Shown one piece after another: positions 17,210 through 48,413 of a DNA stretch of 64,000 nucleotides (position 1 is the first letter of the stretch; each line of letters starts with the position of its first letter). The position numbers and the translations under genes were made by a program. The DNA is taken from contig JBLYPX010000001.1 of the NCBI GenBank assembly GCA_048538235.1, positions 787,011 to 851,010 on the forward strand, written 5' to 3'. Source of the stretch: Candidatus Komeilibacteria bacterium (GTDB taxonomy: Bacteria; Patescibacteriota; Patescibacteriia; UBA1558). A model generated the notes under the pieces. The model did not search any database. It was given only the letters and a program-made list of their open reading frames with translations, and was not told the origin of the DNA.

Positions 17210-17468
17210 ATTGTTAATAAGGTTGTTTATTAAAAACTAATCTTAAGTTAACAACCACACCTAATGTGTTAATAAAAAAACGGTTATACACAGACATAGA
17301 ATTTAAAGTAAAACTTAATAACAGATAATAAAATTTTCCCTAACTGTTTGTTAACTTTCAAAACCATCTCTAAACCGTTTGTACATAATATAATAATAGA
17401 CCTTATCAACATATTAACAGCCCCTATTATTATAACTAAGTAAAATATAATTAATTAATAATATAGTA
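17210..17468. promoter_or_regulatory. dnaA-dnaN intergenic AT-rich region with DnaA-box-like 9-mers (candidate oriC / unwinding element)
   Basis: TTATACACA at 17284-17292 and TTATCAACA at 17407-17415. Long AT runs. Confidence 0.5.
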
Positions 17469-18569
17469 ATGAAATTTATATGCACAAGAGAAAATTTGAA
17501 TAATGGTTTAAGCGTTGTAAACCATTTAGCTTCTCACAATGCAAACCTACCAATTCTAAATAATGTTTTAGTAGATGCTAAAGACGGAATAATAACTTTA
17601 GCTACAACAAATTTAGAAATTGGGATTAAGGTTGTAGTGAGAGGGAAAATAGAAACAGAAGGTTCTTACACTGTGCCAGCTCGTTTATTTTCAGATTTTG
17701 TTTCATTACTGCCAAATGAAAACGTAGATATAGATTTAGAAACAGATGGTTTAAATGTACGTTGTAAAAATTCACAAACACAAATTAAAGGAATGCTGTC
17801 AGAGGATTATCCTTTAATTCCAGATGTTAGTTCAGATAAAAAGGTTTCCATAGATATGCAAGTTTTTAAAGAAACTTTAGGACAAACAGTTTTTGCAGCA
17901 ACGCTAGATGATAATAGACCAGAAATTAGTGGTGTGTTTTTTAACTTCAAAGGTCAAGATCTTGTGGTGGCAGCAACAGACAGTTATCGTTTGGCTGAAA
18001 AGAGAATTAAAGTAGAAAATTCTATTGATCAAAAAGTTATTATACCTTTAAAAACTCTACAAGAACTTAGTAGAATTTTAGCAAACACTACAGAAAAGAA
18101 AATAGAAATATATTTAAATGAGAACCAAATAGCTTTTAGTTGTAATAATATAGTTTTAACTTCGCGTTTAATTGATGGAAATTACCCAGATTATGAACAA
18201 ATTATACCCACGGATGAAAAGACAGTAACAAAGGTTGGTGTTAGTGAGTTAGTTAAAGCTATAAAAGGTGCTTCATTGTTCTGTAAAACAGGGATAAATG
18301 ATATAAAAATGACTATTATACCTTCAAAAAATGAAGTGGTTATCCTGTCAACAAACAGTGGATTAGGAGAAAATATTACCAACATAAAGGCAGATATTAA
18401 GGGCGAAGAGGTGGAAATAGTCTTTAATTACCGCTATTTACTTGATGGCTTAAATAACTTACAATCAGAGCAGGTAATAATAAAAACCTCCAATCAAGGT
18501 GCTCCAGGGGTTTTTGTGCCGGACAACAAAGAAGGATACCTATACATTGTGATGCCAATCCGGCAATAA
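17469..18569 (+). CDS. dnaN: DNA polymerase III beta sliding clamp
   Basis: 366 aa, three-domain beta-clamp pattern. N-terminal MKFICTRENLNNGLSVVNHLAS. Confidence 0.9.
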   Translation: MKFICTRENLNNGLSVVNHLASHNANLPILNNVLVDAKDGIITLATTNLEIGIKVVVRGKIETEGSYTVPARLFSDFVSLLPNENVDIDLETDGLNVRCKNSQTQIKGMLSEDYPLIPDVSSDKKVSIDMQVFKETLGQTVFAATLDDNRPEISGVFFNFKGQDLVVAATDSYRLAEKRIKVENSIDQKVIIPLKTLQELSRILANTTEKKIEIYLNENQIAFSCNNIVLTSRLIDGNYPDYEQIIPTDEKTVTKVGVSELVKAIKGASLFCKTGINDIKMTIIPSKNEVVILSTNSGLGENITNIKADIKGEEVEIVFNYRYLLDGLNNLQSEQVIIKTSNQGAPGVFVPDNKEGYLYIVMPIRQ

Positions 18570-25463: not shown

Positions 25464-27041
25464 ATGTTAGTGCGTAATAGTTTCCAAAAAATAATACATT
25501 TTATCAAGGATCATAGATTAAATTATTTATTGGTTTTTTTATTAGTCTTTTTGCTAATGTCTTGGCTACAAGCAGGTCCATATTTTCTAGGAACAGAATC
25601 TTTTTACCATGCTAAGATGGTGGAAAGTTTAGAAAATTCGCTAAAATTAGATAATTTTTCTTGGTTACAATCTACTAATTATTCTAATAGTTTTACAGAT
25701 AGTAATTGGCTTTATCATATATTTTTGAGTTTGTTTGTTGGTGTTTTGCCAACTTTTTTAGTTATAAAAATATTCGCAGCGCTTTTTTCAGCGCTACTAG
25801 CTTTGTATGTATATTATTGGTTAACAAAACACAATGGATTTCTTCCGGGGCTATTTGTGCTCCTTTTATTTTCAATTATTCCGTTTGCTATTAGTATTAA
25901 TAACTTGGGTGCTATTAGTGCGGCCTTGTTTGTTTTGCTGGTTGGTTTAGAGTTTGTTGTGAATTATAGGTATTGGCAACTAGGCGTTCTTAGTATCACA
26001 TTAACCCTCCTAACAGGACAATTTATTTTCTTATTTGTCATCGCTTTACTCTGGCTTTTAATTGAGCTGATATACAACAAGTATAAACTAGATATGTTCA
26101 GAGAAGGATTGTCGAGTATTAAAGATTGGGTACTGAGAAAGTTGGGGCTACGTAGTAAAACTAGTAGAAGGAAATGGTTGATTTTAATATTTTGTTTGTT
26201 TGGCATAGTGATTGGCTTAATGGTTAATCCGTATTGGCCAGAGAGCACGTCTTTTTATAAGGAGCTTATTGCTAACAAAAACACAAACACGTTCTCAGGA
26301 GTATATAATAGCTTTGTTAGTCTAATTTCATCTGCCAAGCTATTGTTTATAATATTTTTGTCATCAGTATTCAGCGTTGTTTATTTGAATAAAAGAATTG
26401 TTAAACTTACAGCCTTTTTATTACTACTAACATTTGTATTTGTTTTAAACACCTTGCTGTTTAGTTGGGGAATAGAGTTTACATACTTGATTATTATTTT
26501 AACAACTTCACTTATACTAAGAGATTGTTTTGGAAGTCTTGGTTTGTGGTCTGCCTGGAATAGCCATAAAAGAAACACTAATTTAGTTAGAGCTGGAATT
26601 GTTATAGCAACTATTATTATTTTGTTTATACCCCTGAAAGGGTACTATGTTCTAAATAAAGATGGTGATTTTTACCCATTGAATTATATGCAAGAAGCAG
26701 CAGAGTGGTTATATTATCATATTCCAGATAATGCGCTGGTTATTAATACAGATTACGAGGATTGGGCTCCTTTGTTTTATTATAATGACAATAATAGATA
26801 CTGGTGGGGTTTGAGTAATAACATTATGAATAATGCTCAAAAATCAAGCAGGAATGACCTGATTGGTATTATAGATGGTTCTAGTAATAAAAACCCTTAT
26901 GCCCTATTTAAAGGCAGTTTTAAAGCAGATTACCTATTGGTAAATAGTCGTAGAAATATACTGAATAGTCGCTTAACAGACAATATATACTTTTCATTAG
27001 TATATAGCGATGAGGATTGCTATATATATGAAATACAATAA
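25464..27041 (+). CDS. large polytopic membrane protein, GT-C-fold glycosyltransferase-like (ArnT/PMT/YfhO-like), 12+ TM
   Basis: 525 aa. First extracytoplasmic loop contains GTESFYHAKMVESL (acidic DE-like motif typical of GT-C enzymes). Many TM helices, then about 150 aa soluble C-terminal domain rich in N/Y/W. Convergent with the pilin operon. Confidence 0.4.
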   Translation: MLVRNSFQKIIHFIKDHRLNYLLVFLLVFLLMSWLQAGPYFLGTESFYHAKMVESLENSLKLDNFSWLQSTNYSNSFTDSNWLYHIFLSLFVGVLPTFLVIKIFAALFSALLALYVYYWLTKHNGFLPGLFVLLLFSIIPFAISINNLGAISAALFVLLVGLEFVVNYRYWQLGVLSITLTLLTGQFIFLFVIALLWLLIELIYNKYKLDMFREGLSSIKDWVLRKLGLRSKTSRRKWLILIFCLFGIVIGLMVNPYWPESTSFYKELIANKNTNTFSGVYNSFVSLISSAKLLFIIFLSSVFSVVYLNKRIVKLTAFLLLLTFVFVLNTLLFSWGIEFTYLIIILTTSLILRDCFGSLGLWSAWNSHKRNTNLVRAGIVIATIIILFIPLKGYYVLNKDGDFYPLNYMQEAAEWLYYHIPDNALVINTDYEDWAPLFYYNDNNRYWWGLSNNIMNNAQKSSRNDLIGIIDGSSNKNPYALFKGSFKADYLLVNSRRNILNSRLTDNIYFSLVYSDEDCYIYEIQ

Positions 27042-27059
27042 ATTTAGGTAACAAAAAAA

Positions 27060-27080
27060 CTGCTCGTCTGAGCAGTTTTT
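27060..27080. terminator. bidirectional terminator CTGCTC-GTCT-GAGCAG flanked by A8 and T5 between the GT-C-like gene and the pilin operon end
   Basis: Read directly. Confidence 0.65.
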
Positions 27081-27094
27081 ATATTTAGTTTAAT

Positions 27095-27565
27095 TTAATT
27101 TATCACACAACGACTCTCGTCTAGACCATTGGTCCAGCAATGGAATCCACTAGGACAATCTGAATCAGAACTACATTCATTACCACCACCCCTAGTTGAA
27201 TTGTATACATTTGTTATTACAAAGTCAGTTATTACATAGGCTGCTAAAACTATGATTAAACCTATAATGGCGTTTATAATTCTTTTTTTAGCTGAGTCGA
27301 TAGCGGTTGAATTACCACCAGCTGTCATCCATTGAAAACCAGACCATATAATAAGGATAACAAATACAAGACCTAAAAAGCCAAGTAGAATTTGTATAAA
27401 ATTTATTACTATATTTTCTACATCTGTTGATGTGGTAGATCCGGTAACACCTTCTTGAACATAATCAAATTCACTGTTCACCAGGTCGCCTAAATCTGCC
27501 TGAGCTAAAGGTGTGAACAGAACAAAAGAAAATATAATTAAAGTAAGAAGGATAATTTTTTTCAT
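27095..27565 (-). CDS. VirB2/TrbC-like (T4SS-type) pilin paralog P1, subfamily A, with Cys-rich C-terminal module
   Basis: 156 aa. Signal peptide (…PLAQA/DLG), variable acidic/T-rich segment, then the conserved hairpin core IQILLGFLGLVFVILIIWSGFQWMTAGGNSTAIDSAKKRIINAIIGLIIVLAAYVITDFVI. C-terminal GGGNECSSDSDCPSGFHCWTNGLDESRCVIN has 4 Cys. Confidence 0.65.
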   Translation of the reverse strand: MKKIILLTLIIFSFVLFTPLAQADLGDLVNSEFDYVQEGVTGSTTSTDVENIVINFIQILLGFLGLVFVILIIWSGFQWMTAGGNSTAIDSAKKRIINAIIGLIIVLAAYVITDFVITNVYNSTRGGGNECSSDSDCPSGFHCWTNGLDESRCVIN

Positions 27566-27566
27566 A

Positions 27567-27944
27567 TTATTGTACAGAGTCTATTACTTTATCTAAAACA
27601 AATTCAGTTATAGCAAAGGCTGCAATTACTATAATTAAACCTATAACGGCGTTTATAATTCTTTTCTTAGCTGCATCTATTACAGTTGAGTTGCCACCAG
27701 CCATCATCCATTGGTACCCAGAAACTATTATTAATATTATAAAAATTATTGATAGCAAGCTAAGAGCTATTCGAATAATATTTACTATAATGTCTTGTGG
27801 GGTTGCCGGCTCATAGTCTGCGCCGAGAGCAGCGGTTTCAACTAACTCATTTTTTGCATTTATATCGTCTTGAAGAGAGGCTAATGAAACTAAAGGAGTG
27901 GCTATTGTTAGTAATATTAAAAATGTTAAAAGTAATTTTTTCAT
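27567..27944 (-). CDS. VirB2/TrbC-like pilin paralog P2, subfamily A
   Basis: 125 aa. Signal peptide, variable region, SGYQWMMAGGNSTVIDAAKKRIINAVIGLIIVIAAFAITEFVL. Confidence 0.65.
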   Translation of the reverse strand: MKKLLLTFLILLTIATPLVSLASLQDDINAKNELVETAALGADYEPATPQDIIVNIIRIALSLLSIIFIILIIVSGYQWMMAGGNSTVIDAAKKRIINAVIGLIIVIAAFAITEFVLDKVIDSVQ

Positions 27945-27949
27945 AATAT

Positions 27950-28339
27950 TTAATGTCTTCCTCCTAAGGTGAAAGCTTTTTCTATAACAAAGTCAGTTAT
28001 ACCAAATACAGCTAAGGTTATAACTAAACCAATAATTGCATTTACCATACGTTTTTTAGCTGAATCAATGGCAGTAGAGTTACCACCAGCTGTCATCCAT
28101 TGATAGCCAGAAATTAAAATAAGAATAGTAAATATTACCCCAATAAAACCAAGTGCTATCTGAATTGCATTACCGACAATAATGGCCGGATCTTTCACGC
28201 CTGGAGCCTCTCCCGCGCTATTATAATATGCTTGACCACCAGTTTGTTTGAGGTTTTCTCCTATTGATGTAGCTCCAACGGGCAAGGCAACGCTAATTAG
28301 CAGGAAAATAATTATTAATTTTATTATATTTTTGTTCAT
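27950..28339 (-). CDS. VirB2/TrbC-like pilin paralog P3, subfamily A
   Basis: 130 aa from the internal ATG at 28337-28339 (MNKNIIKLIIIFLL…). The ORF-track start at 28378 would overlap P4. Core SGYQWMTAGGNSTAIDSAKKRMVNAIIGLVITLAVFGITDFVI. Confidence 0.6.
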   Translation of the reverse strand: MNKNIIKLIIIFLLISVALPVGATSIGENLKQTGGQAYYNSAGEAPGVKDPAIIVGNAIQIALGFIGVIFTILILISGYQWMTAGGNSTAIDSAKKRMVNAIIGLVITLAVFGITDFVIEKAFTLGGRH

Positions 28340-28343
28340 AATT

Positions 28344-28769
28344 TTATTGAACTTGCTGTGTTTCAAGGCTGCCACCACCAGTACTTATTAATATTTGGTC
28401 TGTTACAAACCAAGTGATACTATATGCAGCTAGGGCTATTACCAAGCCAATTGTTGCATTAATCATGCGTTGCTTAGCTTTTCCAATAGCTTCACTATTA
28501 CCACCAGCCATCATCCACTGAAAGCCAGATATGATGATTAGTATCAAGAAAACTGTACCCAAGAAGCCTAATATAATTTGTATAAAGTTACCAATTCTAA
28601 CTGGCAGTGGAGTTTCGTCACCTGTGTTAAAACCAGACTGTGTTCCAAACTCTGAATAACTATCTATTGGAGAACCTTCTGTAGGGTTTAATACATCTGA
28701 ATTAATAAGAGCGGCACCAGCAGGTATAGCTATAATCATTGCCAATAAGATGGATATAAAAAGTTTCAT
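28344..28769 (-). CDS. VirB2/TrbC-like pilin paralog P4, subfamily A
   Basis: 141 aa. Core SGFQWMMAGGNSEAIGKAKQRMINATIGLVIALAAYSITWFV. Confidence 0.65.
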   Translation of the reverse strand: MKLFISILLAMIIAIPAGAALINSDVLNPTEGSPIDSYSEFGTQSGFNTGDETPLPVRIGNFIQIILGFLGTVFLILIIISGFQWMMAGGNSEAIGKAKQRMINATIGLVIALAAYSITWFVTDQILISTGGGSLETQQVQ

Positions 28770-28770
28770 A

Positions 28771-29163
28771 TTATATATTAGCTACACTTGTTATCACAAA
28801 GCTTGTTAAAGCATAGGCTGCTAAAACAACTATTAAACCTATGGTGGCATTTATAAGTCTTTTTTTTGATGTATCAATAGAGCTAGAATTACCACCAGCT
28901 GTCATCCACTGAAAACCAGAAACTATTATTAATACTAAGAAAAGGGTTCCTATTAAACCAAGAGCTATTTGTACTACAGAAGCCACAATTTGCTGTGGAT
29001 TTTTGTAGCCAGCTTCGTCCTTGGTGGTAAACCCAGCTTCACCTGCTGTTGTTTCCAGCCCAGTTTCTATAGCTAAAAGAGGAGCGGCTATTATAACTAA
29101 AAAAGAGGTTACAATAAATATAACCACCAATAAAGCACTTAAATTGTTTATAGATACTTTCAT
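28771..29163 (-). CDS. VirB2/TrbC-like pilin paralog P5, subfamily A
   Basis: 130 aa. Core SGFQWMTAGGNSSSIDTSKKRLINATIGLIVVLAAYALTSFVI. Confidence 0.65.
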   Translation of the reverse strand: MKVSINNLSALLVVIFIVTSFLVIIAAPLLAIETGLETTAGEAGFTTKDEAGYKNPQQIVASVVQIALGLIGTLFLVLIIVSGFQWMTAGGNSSSIDTSKKRLINATIGLIVVLAAYALTSFVITSVANI

Positions 29164-29180
29164 ATATATAGTTTAAGCTC

Positions 29181-29215
29181 AGGCGGACCATATAAATATG
29201 ATCCGCTATAGTCTA
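29181..29215 (-). other. intergenic RNA hairpin between pilin paralogs P6 and P5 (GCGGAUCA-loop-UGGUCCGC), no U-tract
   Basis: 8-11 bp stem in the 62-nt P6-P5 spacer. Could be a processing/stability element or a partial attenuator separating the two subfamilies. Confidence 0.35.
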
Positions 29216-29225
29216 GACTATATTT

Positions 29226-29597
29226 TTAAGCTTGAGTTGCGCCTTGAATGTTTGTAATAACAAATGAGGCAATAGCGTAAGCAGCTAAAATGATGATCAA
29301 ACCGATAACACCATTAATAATAAACTGTCTACCTTTCTTAACTCTGTCTTCATTACCACCAGCTGTCATCCACATGAATCCACCGATTAGAATCAAAATA
29401 ACAGCGATTAAGCCTAAGAAGCCCAAGATGATAGAGATGATGTTATTTACAATATCTTTAACACCAGCATCACCTAAGCCTAAAGCTTGTGCGTCTTCCA
29501 ATCCTAAGTCAGCTGTTGCCATACTTAGCATAGGAGCTGCCATGAAGGCAACAATCATAACGATTGCGAATAATTTTTTGTTCATAAGTTTTTTCAT
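29226..29597 (-). CDS. VirB2/TrbC-like pilin paralog P6, subfamily B, with own promoter and strong SD (candidate major subunit)
   Basis: 123 aa from the ATG at 29595-29597 (MKKLMNKKLFAIVMIVAFMAAPMLSMATA/DLG…), preceded by AAAGGGGGTGA SD. Core GGFMWMTAGGNEDRVKKGRQFIINGVIGLIIILAAYAIASFVI. The ORF-track start at 29621 is a TTG with no SD. Confidence 0.65.
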   Translation of the reverse strand: MKKLMNKKLFAIVMIVAFMAAPMLSMATADLGLEDAQALGLGDAGVKDIVNNIISIILGFLGLIAVILILIGGFMWMTAGGNEDRVKKGRQFIINGVIGLIIILAAYAIASFVITNIQGATQA

Positions 29598-29651
29598 AAT
29601 GTCACCCCCTTTCGTGGGCAAATTAATTATTATTATGTTAACTATAGTAAT

Positions 29652-29680
29652 ATTATACTATAAATTATCAATTTTAACAA
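29652..29680 (-). promoter_or_regulatory. internal operon promoter for P6: -35 TTGTTA (29675-29680), 17 bp, -10 TATAAT (29652-29657)
   Basis: Minus-strand read: TTGTTAaaattgataatttatagTATAAT. Sits in the 60-nt P7-P6 spacer. Confidence 0.5.
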
Positions 29681-29681
29681 T

Positions 29682-30032
29682 TTAGTTAGCAGGAATTATT
29701 TCAAAGATAAAGGCTAGAATGCTATAAGCTGAGAATATAATTACAATGCCTAAAGTAGCCCAAATAAGAGTATCTTTACCCTTTTTTATCTTGTCCATGT
29801 TGCCAGAAGCTGTCATCCACATGAATCCACCGATAATGAAATATATTAAAGCTATTGTTCCGGTTAGCCCCAGTACAGCTTTAATTATTAACCCAACTAG
29901 TTCCTGAGGACTCTCTGTGGTCAAAGGGTTTGTAATATGAATAGATTCTTCAGTGGTTTCTGCGTGAACAGATAAGGCTGTAAACAGTAGCAATGAAGAT
30001 GTTCCTATGTAGTTTATTATTTTTTTAATCAT
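29682..30032 (-). CDS. VirB2/TrbC-like pilin paralog P7, subfamily B
   Basis: 116 aa. Signal peptide …SVHA/ETT. Core GGFMWMTASGNMDKIKKGKDTLIWATLGIVIIFSAYSILAFIF. Confidence 0.6.
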   Translation of the reverse strand: MIKKIINYIGTSSLLLFTALSVHAETTEESIHITNPLTTESPQELVGLIIKAVLGLTGTIALIYFIIGGFMWMTASGNMDKIKKGKDTLIWATLGIVIIFSAYSILAFIFEIIPAN

Positions 30033-30047
30033 ATATTTAAATAATTA

Positions 30048-30656
30048 TTATTCAGATTGACAGCAAACAATATTGTTTGGACCAAAACACATATTACTTA
30101 CAATTGTCCCCTCGACACATTGCGTAGAGTTTCTGCAGGCATAACCTCCACCCTCTGGCGGAGTAGCATCACATTTTTGTACACAGTCATTATTTATACA
30201 TATGCCCAAACCACTTCTACAAGAATCATTTTCTTGAAGACCATCGCAAGGTCCAGCAACTTGAGTGTTGGTGTTTTCTAATGACCTGGTAGAGATAGAA
30301 ACTAAAATTGTTTGAACAATTAACCACGCGCCCATCACTATAACAATTCCAATCACAGTATTTACCATTATATCTTTACCCTTTTCAATTTTTCCCGATT
30401 TACCACCAGATGTTAGCCACATAATTCCACCGAATATGAAAAAGAGTAGAGCAAAGCTACCAAGTATACCTAATCCCCATTTGCTTAAGACTACAAAGGT
30501 GTTAAAACCCTGATCAAGAGAACAGCTACCGTCTGCAATACAAGAGTCTTCGTAGTCTGTTGATCCTTCAGGGTAGAAACTTGAGTCTTGCAAAACTGAA
30601 GCACTAGCAAGAAGCGGTGTGACAAGTAAAATTAGAACAATTATTAATTTTTTCAT
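30048..30656 (-). CDS. VirB2/TrbC-like pilin paralog P8, subfamily B, with 66-aa Cys-rich (11 Cys) C-terminal module
   Basis: 202 aa. Signal peptide. Variable region with 2 Cys. Core GGIMWLTSGGKSGKIEKGKDIMVNTVIGIVIVMGAWLIV. C-terminus PCDGLQENDSCRSGLGICINNDCVQKCDATPPEGGGYACRNSTQCVEGTIVSNMCFGPNNIVCCQSE. ATGA overlap with the upstream SBP gene. Confidence 0.6.
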   Translation of the reverse strand: MKKLIIVLILLVTPLLASASVLQDSSFYPEGSTDYEDSCIADGSCSLDQGFNTFVVLSKWGLGILGSFALLFFIFGGIMWLTSGGKSGKIEKGKDIMVNTVIGIVIVMGAWLIVQTILVSISTRSLENTNTQVAGPCDGLQENDSCRSGLGICINNDCVQKCDATPPEGGGYACRNSTQCVEGTIVSNMCFGPNNIVCCQSE

Positions 30657-32050
30657 TCTGGTTTTTTAATTGTTTGATTTATTTTTCGAACTATTAAGTC
30701 TAGTAAATCCATAGTTGTAAACTCACTAGAAACATTATGATATGCCTGATAAATTAAATCTTCCATCGCTGAATTTGCTTCACTGTAGTCATAGCCACGA
30801 TACCAGGCTCTAGCGTTTAGGACTTGGTCAGCAAACACACCAACACTTTCGCTTTGTATTTGGTTGTTTATTAAAGATAAAAGTGCAGTTGGTTGTTCAC
30901 TAGCTTCTAAATATGCCATAGTTACTTCTGGTGTTGTAGTTACAAATCTTATAAAATCCCAAGCTGGTTGAATTTTATCTTCAGAAGAGCCAAAATATGT
31001 AGATAATGCCCAGAAATCTGCAAAATTAACCTCTTGTACATCTGGTACGGTTTGTAGCATTGGTGCAATATTGAAGTTTAATTTAGGAGATTGAGCTTTA
31101 ATTATTGGTGCCTGATAAGAGTAGCCAATAAAGTAAGCAAGTTTTCCAGAAGTAAACATTTCTAATGCATCTGGTTTATCTTCAGACCAAGAGTATACTT
31201 CCTTAGTTGGATCAATAAAGTTTACAAAAAATTCTAGAGCATCTTTACCAGGATAAAACTTTCCCTGTCCAGGAGGAGGTTGGTTGAATGTTACATTATT
31301 ATATTCATCTGTCATTTGAGCACCATTTTGCATCATTAGCAGTGCTAGTATATCTGTTGCTCTTGGAATGTTTGTGGCAGAGCCTAATGCAATTCCAGCT
31401 TGTTGAATATTTCCATTGCCATCAAAAGTTGTTAATTCTTTTACTTGCTCAATTAATTCAGCCCAAGTAGTAGCGGGTAAAGGTATTTTAGCGCTGTTTA
31501 GTAAATCGCGATTATAATATAGAGCTAAACTATCAACACTTAAAGGTAGGCCATAAATTTGATTATCTATTACCACTTGATCATAGACAGCTGGAACAAA
31601 TAACTCTTGAACCTTTTTTGGAGTAAGGCCCGCAACTGTTTTAATAACAACAGTTGGTTCTTGTTTAATAGTGCCCTTCATTTCAACATAAGGAATACGC
31701 ATAGATTCAGGCATTTCCTTTATCAAACTTTGGTATTGCCTAATCTGTGTAGAAGGGATAGAAAATATTTCTGGACCTCTTTGTTCTAGCCAAGCTTGCG
31801 TTAACTCGCTTTCATATTCTTCGTATCTGAACTTTCTATACTTAATCTTAATGTTTGGGTGTATTGTCTGGTAAGCATTTATTAAACTAGCAACGTCTGC
31901 TGTTTCTTCCCAAACACCCCACCAATTTAATTCAACAGGTTTGTATAGTTGTTCGACCTCACTACTTTGTGAGAATTTACAACCAAAACCCATTAGTGGA
32001 AGTGACACCAAGATTAAAGTAAGAATAGATAATTTTGTTTTAGATAGCAT
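30653..32050 (-). CDS. extracellular solute-binding lipoprotein (ABC transporter SBP family 1, sugar/MalE-like), orphan: no permease or ATPase adjacent
   Basis: 465 aa. Lipoprotein signal LILVSLPLMGFGC. MalE-like two-lobe pattern (…YRGYDYSEANSAMEDLIYQAY…). Translationally coupled to pilin P8 (stop/start overlap ATGA). Confidence 0.65.
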   Translation of the reverse strand: MLSKTKLSILTLILVSLPLMGFGCKFSQSSEVEQLYKPVELNWWGVWEETADVASLINAYQTIHPNIKIKYRKFRYEEYESELTQAWLEQRGPEIFSIPSTQIRQYQSLIKEMPESMRIPYVEMKGTIKQEPTVVIKTVAGLTPKKVQELFVPAVYDQVVIDNQIYGLPLSVDSLALYYNRDLLNSAKIPLPATTWAELIEQVKELTTFDGNGNIQQAGIALGSATNIPRATDILALLMMQNGAQMTDEYNNVTFNQPPPGQGKFYPGKDALEFFVNFIDPTKEVYSWSEDKPDALEMFTSGKLAYFIGYSYQAPIIKAQSPKLNFNIAPMLQTVPDVQEVNFADFWALSTYFGSSEDKIQPAWDFIRFVTTTPEVTMAYLEASEQPTALLSLINNQIQSESVGVFADQVLNARAWYRGYDYSEANSAMEDLIYQAYHNVSSEFTTMDLLDLIVRKINQTIKKPE

Positions 32051-32165
32051 AGTAATTTTTAATTAAAACTAAGTAAATTATACAATTTTATAGGTGATTT
32101 GTAAAACAAAGACCTGATTAAGAAAATACTATATAATACATATATTATTATTAACATATATAATT

Positions 32166-32681: not shown

Positions 32682-32769
32682 TGGCGGAGGCGGGAGGATT
32701 CGAACCTCCGAGACCAAAAGGTCCACTGCTTTTCGAGAGCAGCGCATTAAACCACTCTGCCACACCTCC
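32682..32769 (-). tRNA. tRNA-Ser (anticodon CGA), long variable arm, CCA encoded
   Basis: RC reads GGAGGTGTGGCAGAGTGGTTTAATGCGCTGCTCTCGAAAAGCAGTGGACCTTTTGGTCTCGGAGGTTCGAATCCTCCCGCCTCCGCCA. Anticodon loop CU-CGA-AA. Type II variable arm. Its 5' end abuts the stop codon of the upstream gene. Confidence 0.85.
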
Positions 32770-34160
32770 TATTCAAGTTGCGACAATTTTTTGTTTACAG
32801 TGTGGTTGTAAAGAACTATTGTAATTCCTACTATTAGCCAAAATAATATACTAAGGTCATTTTTAAAATATGGGACATCAACTATTCCATGAATTATTAT
32901 AACAATTAAAGAGGCACCAACACCTAAGCTTAGGTGAGTAATATATTCTTTTTTATAAATTGGTAGCCACTTCTTTTTAATATTTATTCTGTATATTAAT
33001 ACACCAAGGATTATAAAGAGCCACAAGGTGCTAATAAGACCAAGTATACCAACCTCTGTCCAGAAATTTAAAATAATATTATGAGGATAAAGAAAAACCT
33101 CAACTGGTTGCCACTTATCATTTATGGTAATTCCAGATGAATGGTATTGTTTAACAGCTTCTTGGTAATTTGCTAGCCCACCTCCAGTAAACGGATTATC
33201 TTTAAGCATGGATATTGTTTCAGTCCACTGAGCTCTACGTATTTGTCCAGAATAGTCAGATATCGTTATTTTCTCAAAAGCTACACTTCTTAAAGAAGGG
33301 GTTATTAGTATTACAAAATATAATATTACAGCTAAAACTATTGCTAGTAGGCGGGTGTGTTTTTTTGCTAGTAATATAATGAACACACCAATACTTAAAG
33401 CTATTAAAGCACCTTCTGAGCTTGCCCAAATGATTGTAAATATTATTGAAATAAAAGCAATGAATTTTAATATTTTTAAGTATGTATATTCTTTAATCCA
33501 CAGAGTCGCAAAGATAAGAGCTCCAATTGGAGCAAGTAATAATCCATTGGCATTTGGATAACCAAAAAAGGTTGTTACTCTCCTTGTTTCTGGTAAATAC
33601 CAATCTAGTACAGGTATGTTCCAGCCAGTAAGCTTTTGTATTAAAGCATAGATGAATATTATTATAGACAAAACACTAAAGGTGTATATTAGTTTGTTTA
33701 TCTCAGAATTTTTTCTTATATAATATAGTAAAACGCCTAAAAACATTAATGGTTCTAGAAAGTATGCTTTCCATATTCCAGCACCAGCCATTGTTTGTGG
33801 AGTTGTAATAAGAGCAATAATAGAGGCTAGAAAGAATATAAATATTGGCAGAGCTATTATCTTAGGGATTAAATTTCTTTTACTAGTAGCTATTTTTTCT
33901 TCTTCTGCTTTGAAGAATTTTTTAAACCAAGCGCTAATAGCAATGTGTAGTTTTCTACTTTGCCATAGTTTAATAACCCACATTATGAATAGCAATACTA
34001 CCATCCCTTCTAAAAGTGTGGCTGGTATATTAAATATTTGAAAACGGATCAAATACGTTGGTAATAATAAAATAGTTAAATAAATACCTCTTTGCATACG
34101 AGGCCAAGCTAGAATAATAAAGAAGAGATAAAAGATAGCAATTAATATTAGATTTAACAT
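32769..34160 (-). CDS. O-antigen ligase/polymerase-like (Wzy_C family) polytopic membrane protein
   Basis: 463 aa, about 12 TM. Periplasmic-loop motif FLYPHNIILNFWTEVGILGLIS resembles the Wzy_C H-N...E.G signature. Confidence 0.55.
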   Translation of the reverse strand: MLNLILIAIFYLFFIILAWPRMQRGIYLTILLLPTYLIRFQIFNIPATLLEGMVVLLFIMWVIKLWQSRKLHIAISAWFKKFFKAEEEKIATSKRNLIPKIIALPIFIFFLASIIALITTPQTMAGAGIWKAYFLEPLMFLGVLLYYIRKNSEINKLIYTFSVLSIIIFIYALIQKLTGWNIPVLDWYLPETRRVTTFFGYPNANGLLLAPIGALIFATLWIKEYTYLKILKFIAFISIIFTIIWASSEGALIALSIGVFIILLAKKHTRLLAIVLAVILYFVILITPSLRSVAFEKITISDYSGQIRRAQWTETISMLKDNPFTGGGLANYQEAVKQYHSSGITINDKWQPVEVFLYPHNIILNFWTEVGILGLISTLWLFIILGVLIYRINIKKKWLPIYKKEYITHLSLGVGASLIVIIIHGIVDVPYFKNDLSILFWLIVGITIVLYNHTVNKKLSQLE

Positions 34161-35576
34161 TTATTTGGCTCTTAATTCATTTAAAATACTTTTATCTATA
34201 CCTTTAACAAGGTATAGAACAAGTGCATATATTAAGGAGGCTAGGACTATTAATAATATTAGGTTCAAACTGAAGCATAGATATATAAAAACTCCCATTA
34301 TTAAACTGGCGAATATTATTTTTCCACTCATTTTTAAGCTTATTCCAACTTGTGAATATTTATAACAAACATAGAAAGCAAAAATTGCATAAAGTAATTC
34401 TATAAACACAGTTATACTAGCTGCTGCCCAGTAAGAGAATTGTGGAATGAATACAAAATATAATATTAAAGAAAGAACAGCGGTTATAATATAGTAAGGA
34501 ATCATTTTCTTTTGTTTATCTATTGCTAATATAATGTATCCAAAAAGACTACCAAAGAAAATAATAGCTGTTGCCCATATTAATATTTTTAAAACACCGC
34601 CTGAGGCTAAAAAGTCGTCTCCGGCTATTAAAACCATAACCCTGTCAGCAAGTAGCATAGTGCCAACTATTAAGGGTGCTGCCACAATTAAAAAGAAATC
34701 AAATACTTTTTGGTAAACTCTTTTAAATCTTTCAATATTTTTTGTAACATAAGCGGTTGTTAGAACTGGCAGGACAAGCCCTAAGAACATATGAGGGAAT
34801 GTACCTATTATTTCTAATACTTTATAGGTTGCACCATAAATACCAACCTCGCCCTCTGATCTAAAAACAGATAGGATAAGAGTATCAGCTTTAAAATATA
34901 CCAAGGTGAGTAGTGAGGTTAAAGCAATTGGCCAAGCTCTGTGCCAAATTTTTTTCCAATAAGCAAAATCAAAACCAAAACTAAACTTTGTATAACCCCT
35001 GGCCATAAAAAAGATTAAGGAAAAGTATATTAGATTAAATACGACATTACCGAGGATTATGTATAGTAAGTCCTTTTGAAAAACCACAGCTAAAATTACG
35101 GTGATTAAAAAAGCGAATCTTCCTAACACTTCTGTTCCAATTATTTTATCCATTCGTAAGTTCTTTTGAAACAAAGCTACTAATACTTGCGCTAAGGTAA
35201 ATAAGAAGAATGATACAGACATTAAAACAACGCCTTGTTTAACAATAATTGCATAAGGGAATAATAGAACAACAAAAGGTGCGAGAGCAAAAAATACAAA
35301 TGAAGTAATTAATTTTATAGTAAATACATTACTCACAGCTTTTTTCTCATCTACTTCAGGGTCAGATATTTCTTGCATCAAGGCAAGGTATAGACCAAGG
35401 TCTACAATAACAGCAAAGAATTGAACAAAAGCGAGCACTGTGGCGTATTGCCCATAACCGGCTTGTCCTAAATGTCTGGTTATTAACCCAACAATAATAA
35501 CACCAATAATGGTGCTAATTATTTTACCAGTAAATTGAATTACGGTGTTATAGGCTACTTTTTTAGTTAATGACAT
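34161..35576 (-). CDS. oligosaccharide/polysaccharide flippase (MOP superfamily, Wzx-like)
   Basis: 471 aa, about 14 TM. N-terminus MSLTKKVAYNTVIQFTGKIISTIIGVIIVGLITRHLGQAGYGQYATV is typical of the Wzx/polysaccharide biosynthesis protein family. Confidence 0.7.
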   Translation of the reverse strand: MSLTKKVAYNTVIQFTGKIISTIIGVIIVGLITRHLGQAGYGQYATVLAFVQFFAVIVDLGLYLALMQEISDPEVDEKKAVSNVFTIKLITSFVFFALAPFVVLLFPYAIIVKQGVVLMSVSFFLFTLAQVLVALFQKNLRMDKIIGTEVLGRFAFLITVILAVVFQKDLLYIILGNVVFNLIYFSLIFFMARGYTKFSFGFDFAYWKKIWHRAWPIALTSLLTLVYFKADTLILSVFRSEGEVGIYGATYKVLEIIGTFPHMFLGLVLPVLTTAYVTKNIERFKRVYQKVFDFFLIVAAPLIVGTMLLADRVMVLIAGDDFLASGGVLKILIWATAIIFFGSLFGYIILAIDKQKKMIPYYIITAVLSLILYFVFIPQFSYWAAASITVFIELLYAIFAFYVCYKYSQVGISLKMSGKIIFASLIMGVFIYLCFSLNLILLIVLASLIYALVLYLVKGIDKSILNELRAK

Positions 35577-36705: not shown

Positions 36706-37422
36706 TTAAAAGTCTGATTGTATAGATAATGATGTATTTACCCTGTTTACCTGCTGTTCTTGTCTGAATACGGAAATAGTTATTTGTTTTTGGGCTCCGT
36801 GTTTCTTAACGGCGGTTACTTCTAATATGTTTAAACCTAAGGATAAATTAATGTCTTTAGCGAAATCTCCATTCGCATCTGCTAGCACAAGTTCATTATT
36901 AATTGTTAACTCTATTTCTGGATCAGTTTCTCCACTAATTGTTATTAATCTAGAGTCAGTCGTAATATTATTAGCTGGCTCATGTATTAATAGTGATGGT
37001 GGCTTAATAATATTATATACTCCTGTTCCTATATAGAAGATAAAAGCAAATGTAGCCAGAGCGATACCAGTTGCTCTAAGAGTTTTTGGATTTAACCACG
37101 AAAGCCAACTATCTTTATGAACACTTGGTCTATCAAAGCCAGTGAATTGCATTTGTACTCCTTTTTCTCTGTCATACTCTTTGATTAACCAACGTATATC
37201 TAAATCTAATAATTTACCATAAGATCTTAACCATTGTTGAGCATAAACCTCTCCTGGTAAAGACTCATAGGCACCATCTTCTAAAGCTTCTAAATACTTA
37301 ACTTGTATATTAAGTTTTTTTGAAACATCCACCAATTCTAGAGACTGTTCCTCTCTTGTCTTTCTTAATGTTTCAGGCACTGTTTGGTGAGAGACTACTT
37401 TTTTTGTAATAAATGAATTCAT
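36706..37422 (-). CDS. RodZ-like protein: cytoplasmic HTH (XRE-like), single TM, extracytoplasmic DUF4115-like domain
   Basis: 239 aa from the ATG at 37420-37422 (MNSFITKK…). The ORF-track start at 37521 would overlap ftsK by about 100 nt. HTH ETLRKTREEQSLELVDVSKKLNIQVKYLEALEDG. TM IALATFAFIFYIGTGVYNII. Confidence 0.55.
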   Translation of the reverse strand: MNSFITKKVVSHQTVPETLRKTREEQSLELVDVSKKLNIQVKYLEALEDGAYESLPGEVYAQQWLRSYGKLLDLDIRWLIKEYDREKGVQMQFTGFDRPSVHKDSWLSWLNPKTLRATGIALATFAFIFYIGTGVYNIIKPPSLLIHEPANNITTDSRLITISGETDPEIELTINNELVLADANGDFAKDINLSLGLNILEVTAVKKHGAQKQITISVFRQEQQVNRVNTSLSIQSDF

Positions 37423-37423
37423 G

Positions 37424-39697
37424 TTATTTATCCTCTTCCTCTTCATTATATTCATCGTCTTTGTTTTGTCCAGAGTCTTCATTTTCTGACGTTTCATCTG
37501 AATCATCATCTTCCCATTCATCAGTATATTCTCTCATATCTAGATTTTCCTCAAGATCCTCTTGTCTTAACAAAACTTCTCTTGGTTTAGCTCCATTAGG
37601 AGGACCAACTATACCTTTTTCTTCTAGCATATCCAGTAGACTAGCAGCTCTAGCATAACCAACTCTTAATCTTCTTTGTAACAATGAAGCAGATGCTTTA
37701 CCAGCCTTAACTACAACTTCTTGAGCATCAGTTAATAGTTCATCCTCATCATTACCTCCACCAAGTGTGCCACCAGGCATACTACCAATTTTTTGTCTTT
37801 CAACAATTGCTTCGTCATATTCTGGCTCACCTTGTTCTTTCCAGAAATTTACAACATTGTTTATTTCCTTTTCTGAAACAAAAGCACCTTGTAATCTTCT
37901 TGGTTCAGGAAGTTCAGAAGAAGTGTATAACATGTCTCCATTGCCAAGTAGTTTTTCAGCACCAGGAGAATCTATGATTGTTCTTGAATCAATATTTGAA
38001 GCAACAGAAAAAGCTATTCTAGTTGTAATATTGGCTTTAATTAAACCAGTAATAACATTAGTAGAAGGTCTCTGTGTAGCAATTATTAAATGAATACCAA
38101 CTGCTCTAGCAAGCTGCGCAAGTCTAATAATTGATGGCTCTACATCTTTTGGATTAATAACCATCAACTCAGCAAGTTCATCAATTATTATTACCAAATA
38201 AGGCATTCTGTTAACCAAAACACTGCTATTGTATGATTCTATATCTTTCTTACCAACGCTTTGTAAAAGTTTATATCTTTCTTCCATTTCACTAACTGCC
38301 CAGCGTAAGGCATTAATGGTTTTTGGAATCTCCGTAATAATTGGAGTTAATAAATGAGGGATATTATTGTATACAGACAACTCAACTCTCTTTGGGTCTA
38401 CCATTATGAACTTAAGTTCGTCTGGATGGTATTTGTATAAAAGGCTGACAATAAATGCATTTAGGCAAACGCTTTTACCTGAACCAGTTGCACCAGCAAT
38501 CAGACAATGAGGCATTTTAGATATGTAAGTAACCTTTGATTCTCCAGACACATCTTTACCAAGAGCAACTACTAGTGGTTTAGGAGCTCTTTGAAAGCTG
38601 TCAGATTCAATAATTTCTCTTAATTTAACAACAGCTACTTTTTTGTTTGGTACTTCTACACCTACTAATGATTTACCAGGAATAGGAGCTTCAATACGAA
38701 TACGTTTAGCAGCTAGAGCTAAAGCAATATCCTTATCTAAAGCTGTTATTTGAGATAGTTTAATACCATCGGCAGGTTTAAAGGTAAACTGTGTGACTGT
38801 TGGCCCAATATTTGCTTCGCCCATAGTTACTTCTATGTTGAAGTTCTCAAAAGTTTTACGTATTTTTTCTGCACTAGAATCTATATCTCCGCTAGTTGGT
38901 TCGCTACCATTTTTATCTAATAAATCTATTGGAACCTTTACCTTAGGAGCTTTCTTCCTAGGCTTTGGCATTTCAATTAATTCATTATCTGAAGATTCTT
39001 TTTTGTTGGTTTTTTCTTCTACAACCTCTTCATCTTCTTCCTCTTCATAGTCTTCTTCATCTTCATCTTCTTCGTAATCATCTTCTTCGTACTCTTCTTC
39101 CTCTTCATAGTCTTCTTCATAATCTTTACCACTTCTGTTGAAAGAGAAAGATTTTATCTTAAGCCATAACAATCTAAAGATATTAACTTTATTACCAAGC
39201 TCATCTAAGGAGATGTTAAAAGATATTAAAATAGATATTAAAAGTAAACCTAACAAAATTACAAAAGAGGCAAAACCACCCATAGCTTGTTGTAATGGTT
39301 GGGTTATAGCATAACCAATATATCCACCACCCTGATCAGCTGTAAAAGTATTTTGTAAATTATTGAAATCATGTATTAATTCTAAAAGTCCTGAGTAGGC
39401 TAGAATAACAAAAAATAATCCAAGATAATTGCTAGGCTTTAATAAGTATTTATCTGGATTAAGAAGGAAATATCCCCACATTAAAAGTAGTAGCGGGAAT
39501 ATCCATTTACCCCACCCTAGGATCATTCCTAGGATTTGATCAGTAATTATTCCAAAAGCTCCAGCCAGATTTAGCAAAGCAAGTAGTGCAAGTAGTGCAA
39601 TAAGGAAAATTAGGATAATAAAGATACCTTTTTTAGTCTCAGCAGATAGAATTTCACTGTTTTTTCTACCTCTTTTTGATTTTTTCTTTTTAGCCAT
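37424..39697 (-). CDS. ftsK: DNA translocase FtsK/SpoIIIE with acidic D/Y/E-repeat linker
   Basis: 757 aa. N-terminal 4 TM. Linker EDYEEEEEYEEDDYEEDEDEEDYEEEEDEE. Motor with Walker A GATGSGKSV. C-terminal gamma winged helix LLQRRLRVGYARAASLLDMLEEKGIVG. Confidence 0.9.
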   Translation of the reverse strand: MAKKKKSKRGRKNSEILSAETKKGIFIILIFLIALLALLALLNLAGAFGIITDQILGMILGWGKWIFPLLLLMWGYFLLNPDKYLLKPSNYLGLFFVILAYSGLLELIHDFNNLQNTFTADQGGGYIGYAITQPLQQAMGGFASFVILLGLLLISILISFNISLDELGNKVNIFRLLWLKIKSFSFNRSGKDYEEDYEEEEEYEEDDYEEDEDEEDYEEEEDEEVVEEKTNKKESSDNELIEMPKPRKKAPKVKVPIDLLDKNGSEPTSGDIDSSAEKIRKTFENFNIEVTMGEANIGPTVTQFTFKPADGIKLSQITALDKDIALALAAKRIRIEAPIPGKSLVGVEVPNKKVAVVKLREIIESDSFQRAPKPLVVALGKDVSGESKVTYISKMPHCLIAGATGSGKSVCLNAFIVSLLYKYHPDELKFIMVDPKRVELSVYNNIPHLLTPIITEIPKTINALRWAVSEMEERYKLLQSVGKKDIESYNSSVLVNRMPYLVIIIDELAELMVINPKDVEPSIIRLAQLARAVGIHLIIATQRPSTNVITGLIKANITTRIAFSVASNIDSRTIIDSPGAEKLLGNGDMLYTSSELPEPRRLQGAFVSEKEINNVVNFWKEQGEPEYDEAIVERQKIGSMPGGTLGGGNDEDELLTDAQEVVVKAGKASASLLQRRLRVGYARAASLLDMLEEKGIVGPPNGAKPREVLLRQEDLEENLDMREYTDEWEDDDSDETSENEDSGQNKDDEYNEEEEDK

Positions 39698-47590: not shown

Positions 47591-47971
47591 ATGAAGAAGG
47601 TTTTGTTTAACCACAAGGGCATTAAGGTCTTTAGGTTTACAACTCTTATCAATTGGGCTGTCGGACTAACCCTTTTGGTATTTTTTTTCAAGTTCGTGAT
47701 GGCAACTTTGGGACCAGAGCCGAGACGAATTGCCAACGAGGTTCTTTCAGGTGACACCACAGAGTACTGCGTTGATCATGGTATCTACAAGGACTCGCTT
47801 GTAGCGGCTATTTTCAAAAATGCTGATCTTCAACCAGATGAATCGCCCAGAAGTGGTAGGAAACAAATGTCTCGAGCTTATCTTCAGAAGATAGAGCCCT
47901 TAATTGAGGAAACTTTCGACTGGAGAAAACAAGTAGATGACAACAGAGCTGTTATCTGGTCGGAGTATTGA
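47591..47971 (+). CDS. hypothetical protein with N-terminal signal-anchor TM. First gene of a higher-GC islet
   Basis: 126 aa, preceded by AGGAGGAAGAG SD. GC is clearly above neighbouring rpoB. No family recognised. Confidence 0.45.
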   Translation: MKKVLFNHKGIKVFRFTTLINWAVGLTLLVFFFKFVMATLGPEPRRIANEVLSGDTTEYCVDHGIYKDSLVAAIFKNADLQPDESPRSGRKQMSRAYLQKIEPLIEETFDWRKQVDDNRAVIWSEY

Positions 47972-48019
47972 GAAGCTTATATCGAAATCCCTCATGACAA
48001 ATCTCACGTTCCACAGAAA

Positions 48020-48406
48020 GTGAGAAGTACTGAGTTCTTGAGTTGGAATTATGAGTTGCGTGATAACGGGCACATATACATGTTGCCAGAGCGTGAGACA
48101 CCCATCAAAAGCCATCCCTTTATAACCGTACTTTTACTCATCCTGGCAGCATTTGTATTGTGGCTTGTTGTTTATTTGGCTGTCCTACTTTTATACTTTG
48201 GGATTCGAGTACTTTTGTATTGGCCACTTAAGTGGAAATATGAATGTGTGGAAAGGTTGAGCTGGACTTATAGTCTGGGTACAACCAGAATTCTAGAGTA
48301 TGCAGAAGGCAACTCTCCGAAAAAAGGCAGCGTGTTGCTTATCGGGCTCGACGATAAAAGCTATACGCACTTTTGGAATCCAAAACCGAAGGAAGAAACA
48401 GAATAA
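48020..48406 (+). CDS. hypothetical 2-TM membrane protein, higher-GC islet
   Basis: 128 aa. Followed by a strong terminator at 48414-48440. Confidence 0.4.
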   Translation: MRSTEFLSWNYELRDNGHIYMLPERETPIKSHPFITVLLLILAAFVLWLVVYLAVLLLYFGIRVLLYWPLKWKYECVERLSWTYSLGTTRILEYAEGNSPKKGSVLLIGLDDKSYTHFWNPKPKEETE

Positions 48407-48413
48407 TCAAACA

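Follow-up and report, generated by a model that had tools for sequence, protein, structure and literature searches.

Tandem arrays of divergent VirB2-like pilin genes are already known in Patescibacteria. A search of 3,035 genomes with the Pfam models PF18895 and PF04956 recovered 441 such arrays of 2–11 genes in 383 Patescibacteria assemblies, with a mean identity of 25% and a maximum of 54% (Quinonero-Coronel et al. 2025, PMC12102498). Such arrays reach their highest abundance in Microgenomatia and Saccharimonadia, are mapped near virB4 in Fig. S9 of that study, and were suggested to provide host-range versatility; the same work notes that type IV secretion system (T4SS) genes often lie near dnaA. 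In Southlakia epibionticum, a six-pilin array resides inside the T4SS cluster SEML1_0006–0019 and is essential for epibiotic growth as assessed by transposon sequencing (Wang et al. 2023, PMC10633639). A 2025 review (PMC12857230) repeats this essentiality and stresses that the pilus has not yet been seen. For a cultivated Patescibacterium, few gene sets have been shown to be indispensable to epibiotic life, and VirB2-like arrays are among them (PMC10633639, PMC12857230). Here we analyse an array of eight such genes, called P1 to P8, in a 64-kb stretch of DNA (the window) that lies on an 860,445-bp contig of a Candidatus Komeilibacteria metagenome-assembled genome (MAG), representing an ultra-small bacterium of the Patescibacteria class ABY1. 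Two of the eight genes already carry pilin annotations in GenBank, where P7 is named ‘TrbC/VirB2 family protein’ and P8 ‘pilin’, and P1 to P6 are each named ‘hypothetical protein’.

The array resembles the published Patescibacterial examples in its protein family (PF18895, with or without PF04956), its phylum, its tandem divergent paralogues and its origin-proximal chromosomal site. It also fits the array definition of PMC12102498, under which at least two PF18895 or PF04956 genes of low mutual identity are tandem neighbours or have a single non-pilin gene between them. However, it lies outside any T4SS cluster, and the flanking 27–33 kb or so hold no virB4. Its leading gene encodes a solute-binding protein (SBP)-type lipoprotein, its first pilin has a Cys-rich tail, and it belongs to class ABY1. 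Adjacency to VirB4 or other T4SS components, which would be expected of VirB2-type pilins as a functional class, is absent for this array. Solute-binding proteins, glycosylation, cysteine-rich pilins and fused pilins are not mentioned in PMC12102498. The features newly described here are an SBP-led operon remote from virB4, a fixed order of the first three pilin genes, a Cys-rich head pilin, neighbouring genes related to GT-C glycosyltransferases and, elsewhere in the family, fusions of many hairpins into one protein.

Two further groups of known pilins offer useful comparisons. Like the VirB2/TrbC T-pilin of Agrobacterium and the TraA-type conjugative pilins, which belong to diderm T4SSs, the proteins described below have a signal peptide, a two-helix hairpin and a basic turn, and P6 and P7 pass the PF04956 cut-off. 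The present system differs in its monoderm host, in having eight paralogues rather than one, in the Cys-rich C-terminal domains of some members, in the six of eight proteins that fall under the PF04956 cut-off and in the absence of adjacent VirB3–VirB11 genes. The Mbov_0395 family of Mycoplasma integrative and conjugative elements (NF045849) likewise brings a VirB2-like hairpin into a wall-less or monoderm lineage, although its members occur as single copies on mobile elements, whereas the genes studied here form a chromosomal array.

The pilin array and its leading lipoprotein gene

Eight consecutive minus-strand genes fill positions 27095–30656 exactly in the list of open reading frames (ORFs) of the window (Table 1). 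A first-pass annotation, made from the sequence alone, had described these as genes for proteins of 116–202 residues, and the array is confirmed at the coordinates given there; these lengths are those of the maximal ORFs, and the starts of two genes need trimming. P3 is trimmed to an ATG at 28339, where the maximal ORF reaches a GTG at 28378, and P6 to an ATG at 29597 (maximal ORF 29226–29621), which follows the Shine-Dalgarno-like sequence AAGGGGGTGA in the context AAAGGGGGTGA. Both trimmed products are identical to the NCBI gene calls, and a cluster look-up found NCBI proteins identical to every product of the array, with locus tags that run from ACKKL6_03955 onward.

All eight proteins pass the gathering cut-off of PF18895 (T4SS_pilin, 26.6 bits), with scores of 27.7–40.8 bits (E values of 3e-6 to 2e-10). 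Because every member passes the gathering score of one family, the array is not a chance finding. The cut-off of PF04956 (TrbC/VirB2, 27.9 bits) is passed only by P6 and P7; P1 falls 0.2 bit short, P2, P3 and P8 score 10.5–14.8 bits, and P4 and P5 give no match to this model. The best NCBIfam model for P1 to P7 is NF045849 (the Mbov_0395 family), with scores of 24.7–37.7 bits that all lie under its cut-off of 40, and P8 has no match to it. Precomputed Pfam labels of database homologues agree with the PF18895 result. Judged by these profile scores, membership in the VirB2/TrbC-like, T4SS-type pilins is secure, and together with the Komeilibacteria source it bears out the initial proposal of a pilin family that is expanded in the candidate phyla radiation (Patescibacteria). 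The family is very large: of 1.84 billion cluster representatives (50% identity level) searched with a profile built from the eight proteins, 78,180 matched at E ≤ 0.001 and 26,176 at E ≤ 1e-10.

The proteins share one predicted architecture. By topology rules and hydropathy, all eight begin with a hydrophobic segment that resembles a signal peptide and contains an AxA-type site, and the rule-based cleavage sites, here divided by a slash, are AQA/D, LAS/L, VGA/T, AGA/A, LLA/I, ATA/D, VHA/E and ASA/S. After predicted cleavage, an ectodomain of 19–38 residues precedes the first helix and is rich in acidic residues and in Ser and Thr (Asp plus Glu 20%, Ser plus Thr 19%, Lys plus Arg less than 3%). 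Two hydrophobic helices follow, and three or four Lys or Arg residues lie just past the W-M-T-A-G-G-N motif in every protein. An AlphaFold2 model of P6 based on 69 homologues places the helices at residues 41–77 and 83–122, with predicted local distance difference test (pLDDT) values above 90, and the turn at T-A-G-G-N. Thus, a signal sequence, two hydrophobic helices and a short basic turn are predicted for all eight proteins, and the shared architecture of the first-pass annotation stands. Its description of the core as nearly invariant was overstated, given that only five alignment columns (L, G, W, G and G) are invariant across the eight proteins and that pairwise identity is 28–53%, with a mean of 41.5% and a maximum of 53.5%. 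A sequence-profile search of the PDB with 69 pilins yielded only a chance match (E = 0.24), and hence no solved-structure relative by sequence; fold and PDB sequence searches do not discriminate, since thousands of structures with no relation to pilins also match a helical hairpin.

Absent from the earlier description are the Cys-rich C-terminal tails of P1 and P8. P8 carries 12 Cys residues, two of which are conserved in the N-terminal ectodomain and ten of which reside in an 83-residue C-terminal tail (30048–30296), and the Cys positions are conserved among 17 homologues. AlphaFold2 models the domain formed by this tail (residues 145–202 of P8) as a small beta-rich unit (pLDDT of roughly 80–88). 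Because both ends of the hairpin are predicted to lie outside the membrane, the C-terminal domain of P8 would be extracellular. P1 carries four Cys residues, all in a 38-residue C-terminal tail (27095–27211), which shows weak similarity to a Cys-rich repeat of Myxococcus, TIGR04201 (E = 6e-4, under the cut-off). No structural match was found for the Cys-rich tails. Cys-rich pilins in related arrays reach 585 residues with 59 Cys.

The SBP gene is the first of the transcription unit, and its stop codon overlaps the start of P8 by 4 nt. From the junction of the SBP gene with P8 through to P1, the successive spacings are −4, 15, 84, 62, 1, 4, 5 and 1 nt, and the nine genes together constitute a predicted operon. 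The SBP is MalE-like, its nearest solved relatives being sugar- and oligosaccharide-binding proteins. To establish the gene content of the window, 57 of the 59 listed ORFs of at least 110 codons were scanned with Pfam, the other two being ORFs that overlap called genes on the opposite strand. These scans identified no ABC permease or ATPase partner for the SBP in the window. P6 has the only strong Shine-Dalgarno sequence of the array, and its upstream spacer also contains a promoter-like site recognized by consensus match. On the minus strand, the terminator-like hairpin beyond P1 reads AAAAACTGCTC-AGAC-GAGCAGTTTTTTT.

Table 1. Coordinates of the pilin array and adjoining features in the window, with Pfam scores and identical NCBI proteins
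Feature	Coordinates	Strand	Length (aa)	Description	PF18895 (bits)	PF04956 (bits)	NCBI protein
Promoter-like site	32077–32105	−		TTTACA-17-TATAAT, 11/12 consensus match; candidate operon promoter, ahead of SBP gene within the 115-bp divergent spacer			
SBP lipoprotein	30653–32050	−	465	Signal peptide ending L-M-G-F-G-C; Pfam SBP_bac_8/SBP_bac_1			MFW0862715.1
P8	30048–30656	−	202	Cys-rich ‘head’ pilin	40.0		MFW0862714.1
P7	29682–30032	−	116	Own orthogroup, second pilin	37.7	30.7	MFW0862713.1
Internal promoter-like site	29652–29680	−		TTGTTA-17-TATAAT, 10/12; in 84-nt spacer before P6; consensus match only			
P6	29226–29597	−	123	Most conserved paralogue	35.7	28.8	MFW0862712.1 (100% identical)
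P5	28771–29163	−	130	Subfamily A	36.9		MFW0862711.1
P4	28344–28769	−	141	Subfamily A	34.5		MFW0862710.1
P3	27950–28339	−	129	Subfamily A	27.7		MFW0862709.1
P2	27567–27944	−	125	Subfamily A	32.0		MFW0862708.1
P1	27095–27565	−	156	Subfamily A, last operon gene	40.8	27.7	MFW0862707.1
Terminator-like hairpin	27055–27080	both		G+C-containing, with A-/T-run flanks; 14 nt past P1 stop, between convergent P1 and 525-aa gene			
Polytopic membrane protein	25464–27041	+	525	Convergent with array end; GT-C-type (PMT_2-like) relation; possible accessory gene			

Fixed and variable pilin genes in related arrays

A pattern scan across GTDB, with each species represented by a single genome, yielded 78 related loci, whose named lineages are mostly Patescibacteria (Komeili-, Falkow-, Magasanik-, Uhr-, Kerfeld- and Nomurabacteria). 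A hidden Markov model (HMM) of the pilin core finds at least two pilin genes in 72 of the 78 loci, with a modal array size of six and a maximum of 13. The commonest neighbour is the SBP family, which is present in 50 loci; a pilin gene is next downstream in 47 of these, and in 13 cases the two genes overlap by 4 nt. The association also holds in the reciprocal direction, as three of three SBP homologues sampled from an independent search (44–46% identity) are followed by a PF18895 gene, either as the next gene or as the one after it. In ABY1, a large and uncultivated class, the array is thus almost always tightly or translationally coupled to a MalE-like lipoprotein gene, and the locus analysed here illustrates that an array can be remote from every T4SS gene and yet form an intact, origin-proximal operon.

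The positions within the array are not equivalent. The first pilin after the SBP is a long, Cys-rich, P8-like form in 27 of the 47 loci (median length 222 residues, with the 585-residue protein noted above as the extreme). When each pilin is assigned to its best-matching paralogue in the window, roughly 30 of the 78 loci display the order P8 type, P7 type and P6 type followed by a variable run of subfamily A members, and this order spans Komeili-, Uhr- and Kerfeldbacteria as well as unnamed Patescibacteria MAGs. Because the P8-P7-P6 order recurs in so many loci, these three proteins are old orthogroups with fixed positions. The first-pass annotation had divided the paralogues into subfamily A (P1 to P5) and subfamily B (P6 to P8). 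The split itself is real, but subfamily B does not survive as a single group, since by sequence it resolves into three distinct and anciently separated orthogroups. By the same comparison, P1 to P5 belong to a lineage-variable set that expands and contracts. The first three subunits of the ABY1 arrays would accordingly be conserved and not interchangeable.

The closest relative, locus L001, comes from a Black Sea Patescibacteria MAG and is collinear with the window, orthologue by orthologue. Its flanking proteins are mostly 79–93% identical to those of the window (RecA 93%, DnaN 90%, class A penicillin-binding protein (PBP) 86% and SBP 80%), with lower values for PGI (68%) and the 525-residue polytopic protein (57%). 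Pilin orthologues share 45–70% identity, with the exception of P6 at 84%. The distinction is sharper in the hairpin, where P6 retains 97% identity and the other pilins 58–79%. This hairpin conservation, along with the strong Shine-Dalgarno sequence that is unique in the array and the promoter-like site of its own, makes P6 the probable major subunit. L001 also carries a ninth pilin gene (7478–7867) between the orthologues of P7 and P6, which is closest to P6 (55% identity). Its presence in an otherwise collinear array points to a recent gain or loss.

When the pilins are pooled by region, identity to L001 is highest in the hairpin (74%) and drops to 56% for the ectodomain, 45% for the signal peptide and 41% for the tail, and hence ectodomains and tails diverge faster in protein sequence than the hairpin. 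This agrees with the earlier observation that the hairpin is conserved and the exposed part variable. Its companion suggestion, that the pattern reflects diversifying selection, is not established: with saturation at synonymous sites (pS values of 0.6–0.85, several infinite dS values), no selection test against L001 is valid, and the dN/dS values that can be estimated span 0.07–0.34. The SBP gene is under strong constraint in the same comparison (dN/dS of 0.07). A direct-repeat search of the array found 61–72% DNA identity between paralogues over 212 nt and no switch-like repeats, long identical DNA tracts or gene-conversion tracts.

Elsewhere in the family, a search of representatives revealed single polypeptides that carry one signal peptide followed by 2–17 T4SS_pilin hairpin modules. 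Such ‘poly-pilins’ (P0150, P0151, P0153 and P0156; P0151 with six modules and P0150 with eight) are not encoded in the window, and examples from the family include a protein of 820 residues with eight modules and one of 1,775 residues with 17. By Rosetta-stone logic, the existence of these fusions suggests that hairpin modules act side by side in one assembly. Together with the fixed P8-P7-P6 order, the fused proteins make it more likely that the paralogues are distinct subunits of one assembly than that they are antigenic variants able to replace one another.

Several other gene families recur beside the arrays. These include GalU-like nucleotidyltransferases, GT2 glycosyltransferases, DUF2079, PMT_2 and MptA_B/GT87 proteins, and several unannotated polytopic proteins. 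GT-C-like genes are present in 47 of 77 loci and directly adjoin a pilin gene in 33 of the 77. The 525-residue polytopic protein at the end of the array in the window has no Pfam match itself, and its family adjoins arrays in 18 loci. In profile comparisons it matches two unannotated array-flanking families (hhalign probabilities of 98.0 and 98.7), and these families in turn match a PMT_2-positive family (94–97). In group IV type IV pili of Pseudomonas aeruginosa, the gene for the GT-C enzyme TfpW lies next to pilA, as reportedly described by Kus et al. in 2008. The arrays share with this pairing the Ser/Thr-rich exposed pilin segments and a GT-C-type gene adjoining a pilin gene, as also seen in the window, but the pilins belong to different superfamilies (type IV there, VirB2 here). 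O-glycosylation of the pilins is thus offered purely as a hypothesis, raised by the Ser/Thr-rich ectodomains and the neighbouring glycan genes.

Assembly model and competing explanations

The proposal that we consider fairly probable is that the locus is an SBP-led operon whose products form a hetero-oligomeric pilin structure assembled by a T4SS. Each pilin would be exported by the Sec pathway and cleaved by signal peptidase I. This would create a membrane pool of two-helix hairpins with both ends outside and the Lys/Arg-rich turn (W-M-T-A-G-G-N-x-x-x-K-K) in the cytoplasm. The hairpins would then be extracted by a monoderm-type T4SS, powered by VirB4 and encoded at another site in the genome, and polymerised to form a filament or conduit at the surface. 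In the solved F- and T-pili, the turn faces the lumen and the termini lie outside. By analogy, the hairpins would build the wall of the assembled structure with their basic turns toward the lumen, and the acidic, Ser/Thr-rich N-termini, the C-terminal tails and the Cys-rich knobs would constitute its exposed surface. The paralogues would not be interchangeable: P8 with its Cys-rich knob, P7 and the probable major subunit P6 would be ancient and fixed components, with P1 to P5 as variable ones. All would co-assemble into one hetero-oligomeric structure that serves a host-dependent, epibiotic lifestyle.

Several observations weigh against this proposal. The Pfam scans of the window found no VirB4, VirB6, VirB3, VirB8, VirB11 or VirD4, and the only FtsK/SpoIIIE ATPase is a genuine FtsK with 4TM, alpha and gamma domains; the first-pass annotation had likewise noted that VirB4, VirB6, VirB11 and VirD4 are missing from the window. 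Similarly, no VirB4, VirB6, VirB3, VirB8 or VirD4 was recognized among the gene families located within 10 kb of the 78 related arrays. According to PMC10633639 and PMC12857230, no PF18895 pilus has been visualized or purified in any Patescibacterium, and the filament is presented there as a possibility rather than an observation. Moreover, a simple helical pilus made of one subunit does not readily account for the fused multi-hairpin proteins, for which a membrane-embedded oligomer would do equally well. Finally, promoter-like sites in the region number 27 against a shuffle expectation of 26, such that the promoter assignments occur at chance frequency and serve as leads only. Large Walker-A ORFs near related arrays were also considered as VirB4 candidates, and were rejected as ABC exporter, ComM/Mg-chelatase-like, UvrA and SMC proteins.

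The same observations invite an explanation that dispenses with secretion machinery. The hairpins, the co-transcribed SBP and the flanking glycosylation enzymes would then constitute an envelope module independent of a T4SS, forming either a membrane-embedded oligomer or channel as partner of an SBP without an ABC permease, or a glycosylated surface layer or fibre made without VirB4. Such a module would accommodate the SBP gene that directly precedes a pilin gene in 47 of 50 loci and was recovered reciprocally, the lack of ABC permease and ATPase genes in the window, the lack of VirB4-like genes within 10 kb of the 78 arrays, the GT-C-like genes that adjoin pilin genes and the fused poly-hairpin proteins. 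We nevertheless judge it unlikely. The proteins are bona fide members of a VirB2/TrbC-related family, and the homologous Saccharibacteria array lies inside a T4SS cluster and is essential together with that cluster (PMC10633639, PMC12857230). In addition, the Komeilibacteria (class ABY1) assemblies listed in Table S1 of PMC12102498 are scored VirB4-positive, so a distant machine could be available, and the linkage to envelope genes may partly represent synteny inherited within one class.

Antigenic or host-range variation, which the first-pass annotation had offered to explain the variable N-termini, would instead treat the paralogues as interchangeable major subunits, with the dominant one switched to change the surface. 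Tandem, divergent virB2 copies in Bartonella and Anaplasma phagocytophilum have been proposed to diversify the exposed surface in this manner (cited in PMC12102498). A related reading is suggested for Patescibacterial arrays in that study, and the widely varying number of subfamily A copies (arrays of 1–13 genes, with one gene more in L001) and the faster divergence of ectodomains and tails are what such variation would produce. However, Bartonella and Anaplasma are diderm, intracellular animal pathogens whose copies are read as antigenic variants, whereas here conserved orthogroups occupy the first three positions, a pattern more in keeping with separate structural roles. P8, P7 and P6 keep a fixed order across candidate phyla, the genes lie in one tightly spaced operon that lacks switch-like repeats and long identical tracts, and the estimable dN/dS values, all below 0.35, give no sign of positive selection, albeit with saturated dS. 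Furthermore, where many hairpins are fused into one protein, several modules must occur at the same time. We therefore find this explanation improbable for the locus as a whole; pure antigenic variation is disfavoured for P8 to P6, but for P1 to P5 it is possible. More generally, not every array of this type should be taken as a case of antigenic variation.

The last alternative, that P1 to P8 are unrelated small membrane proteins of the holin or bacteriocin-immunity type that merely share a generic two-helix hairpin, is effectively refuted by Pfam scores and gene context: P5 and P8 do have sub-threshold matches to Holin_9 (E = 0.041) and Phage_holin_3_6 (E = 0.15), but these score 14.6 bits against a cut-off of 25.3 and 12.6 against 28.4, PF18895 is passed by all eight proteins, the neighbours are dnaA, dnaN, recA, rpoBC and ftsK with no phage or bacteriocin context, and the predicted cleavable signal peptides and the Cys-rich tails, predicted to be extracellular, are at odds with a holin. 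With pilin models that match, the expected topology in all eight proteins and holin matches confined to E values of 0.04–0.15, none of the outcomes that the first-pass annotation had named as counting against a pilin array was observed.

Beyond the T4SS-assembled heteropolymer that we prefer, the ABY1 loci permit a more speculative view to which we give little weight. In this class, the hairpins might have moved out of the T4SS locus into a separate, conserved surface-organelle operon comprising an SBP, a Cys-knot head pilin, two fixed minor pilins and variable shaft pilins. Neighbouring GT2 and GT-C enzymes might O-glycosylate the Ser/Thr-rich ectodomains, the SBP might serve a heteropolymeric filament as a host-glycan receptor or a nutrient-capture element rather than as part of a transporter, and VirB4 would perhaps be unneeded. 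The findings as a whole raise the testable hypotheses of a heteropolymer with a defined tip, of SBP involvement and of pilin glycosylation.

Chromosomal surroundings of the array

The array is embedded in a core chromosomal region. In the part of the window with the lower coordinates, Pfam scans identify nusA, rnhB, glutamate dehydrogenase, thioredoxin reductase, bactofilin, yidC, rnpA, dnaA and dnaN, and between dnaN and the array lie genes for a class A PBP, tyrS, ruvC, yebC and PGI, followed by the gene for the 525-residue polytopic protein. Beyond the SBP_bac_8 lipoprotein gene are ahpC, tRNA-Ser, a Wzy_C-type protein, a flippase, recA, an HTH_25 protein, ftsK, rpoC and rpoB, and the far end carries Mur ligase, FemAB, ruvA, uvrB, prs, truB, holA and polA. 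The pilin operon (27095–32050) lies roughly 10 kb from dnaA/dnaN (15824–18569, with dnaA at 15824–17209), and rnpA and yidC lie on the other side of dnaA. The origin-proximal position noted for Patescibacterial T4SS genes is thus occupied here by the pilin array and not by virB4. A profile built from the core of the eight pilins identified no further family member in the 64-kb window.

Some neighbours and relatives of the array merit separate mention. Further envelope-glycan genes beside the array encode a Wzy_C/O-antigen-ligase-type protein (32769–34160, minus strand) and a Polysacc_synt flippase (34161–35576, minus strand). Scattered through the window are genes for a protein with HTH_25 and Glucodextran_B domains (36706–37521), a small S-adenosylmethionine-dependent methyltransferase (5515–6069) and a 131-residue protein with two to three transmembrane segments (5119–5514), all on the minus strand. 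In 17–19 other ABY1 loci, their counterparts are part of a fixed block that runs from an SBP and one pilin through the HTH_25, methyltransferase, small transmembrane protein and GT2/GT-C genes to six pilins. About 30 of the loci numbered L005–L078 are titled ‘uncultured Gammaproteobacteria bacterium’ (TPA entries), one ‘Lysobacteraceae’ and one ‘Bacillota’, and yet they carry the SBP–pilin operon; these titles are probably placeholder or wrong labels. A 131-codon ORF antisense to P6 (29290–29685, plus strand) has apparent homologues in 14 loci and was rejected as a shadow of the conserved P6 coding sequence, although a naive length-based gene caller chooses it over P6.

Ten ORFs of the window give no significant Pfam match even at relaxed E-value limits, and their sequences show no sign of T4SS parts. 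The minus-strand gene at 3052–4032 encodes a protein of 326 residues, also without a Pfam match, that has a signal peptide, a Cys-containing N-terminal domain, long Glu/Val-rich acidic repeats and a C-terminal transmembrane anchor, and it may be a surface protein. Three adjacent small plus-strand ORFs (126, 128 and 166 codons; 47591–48946) each encode one hydrophobic segment, and a minus-strand gene at 52363–53661 encodes a soluble protein of 432 residues, again with no significant Pfam match for any of the four. These genes sit between rpoB and the Mur ligase, FemAB and ruvA genes.

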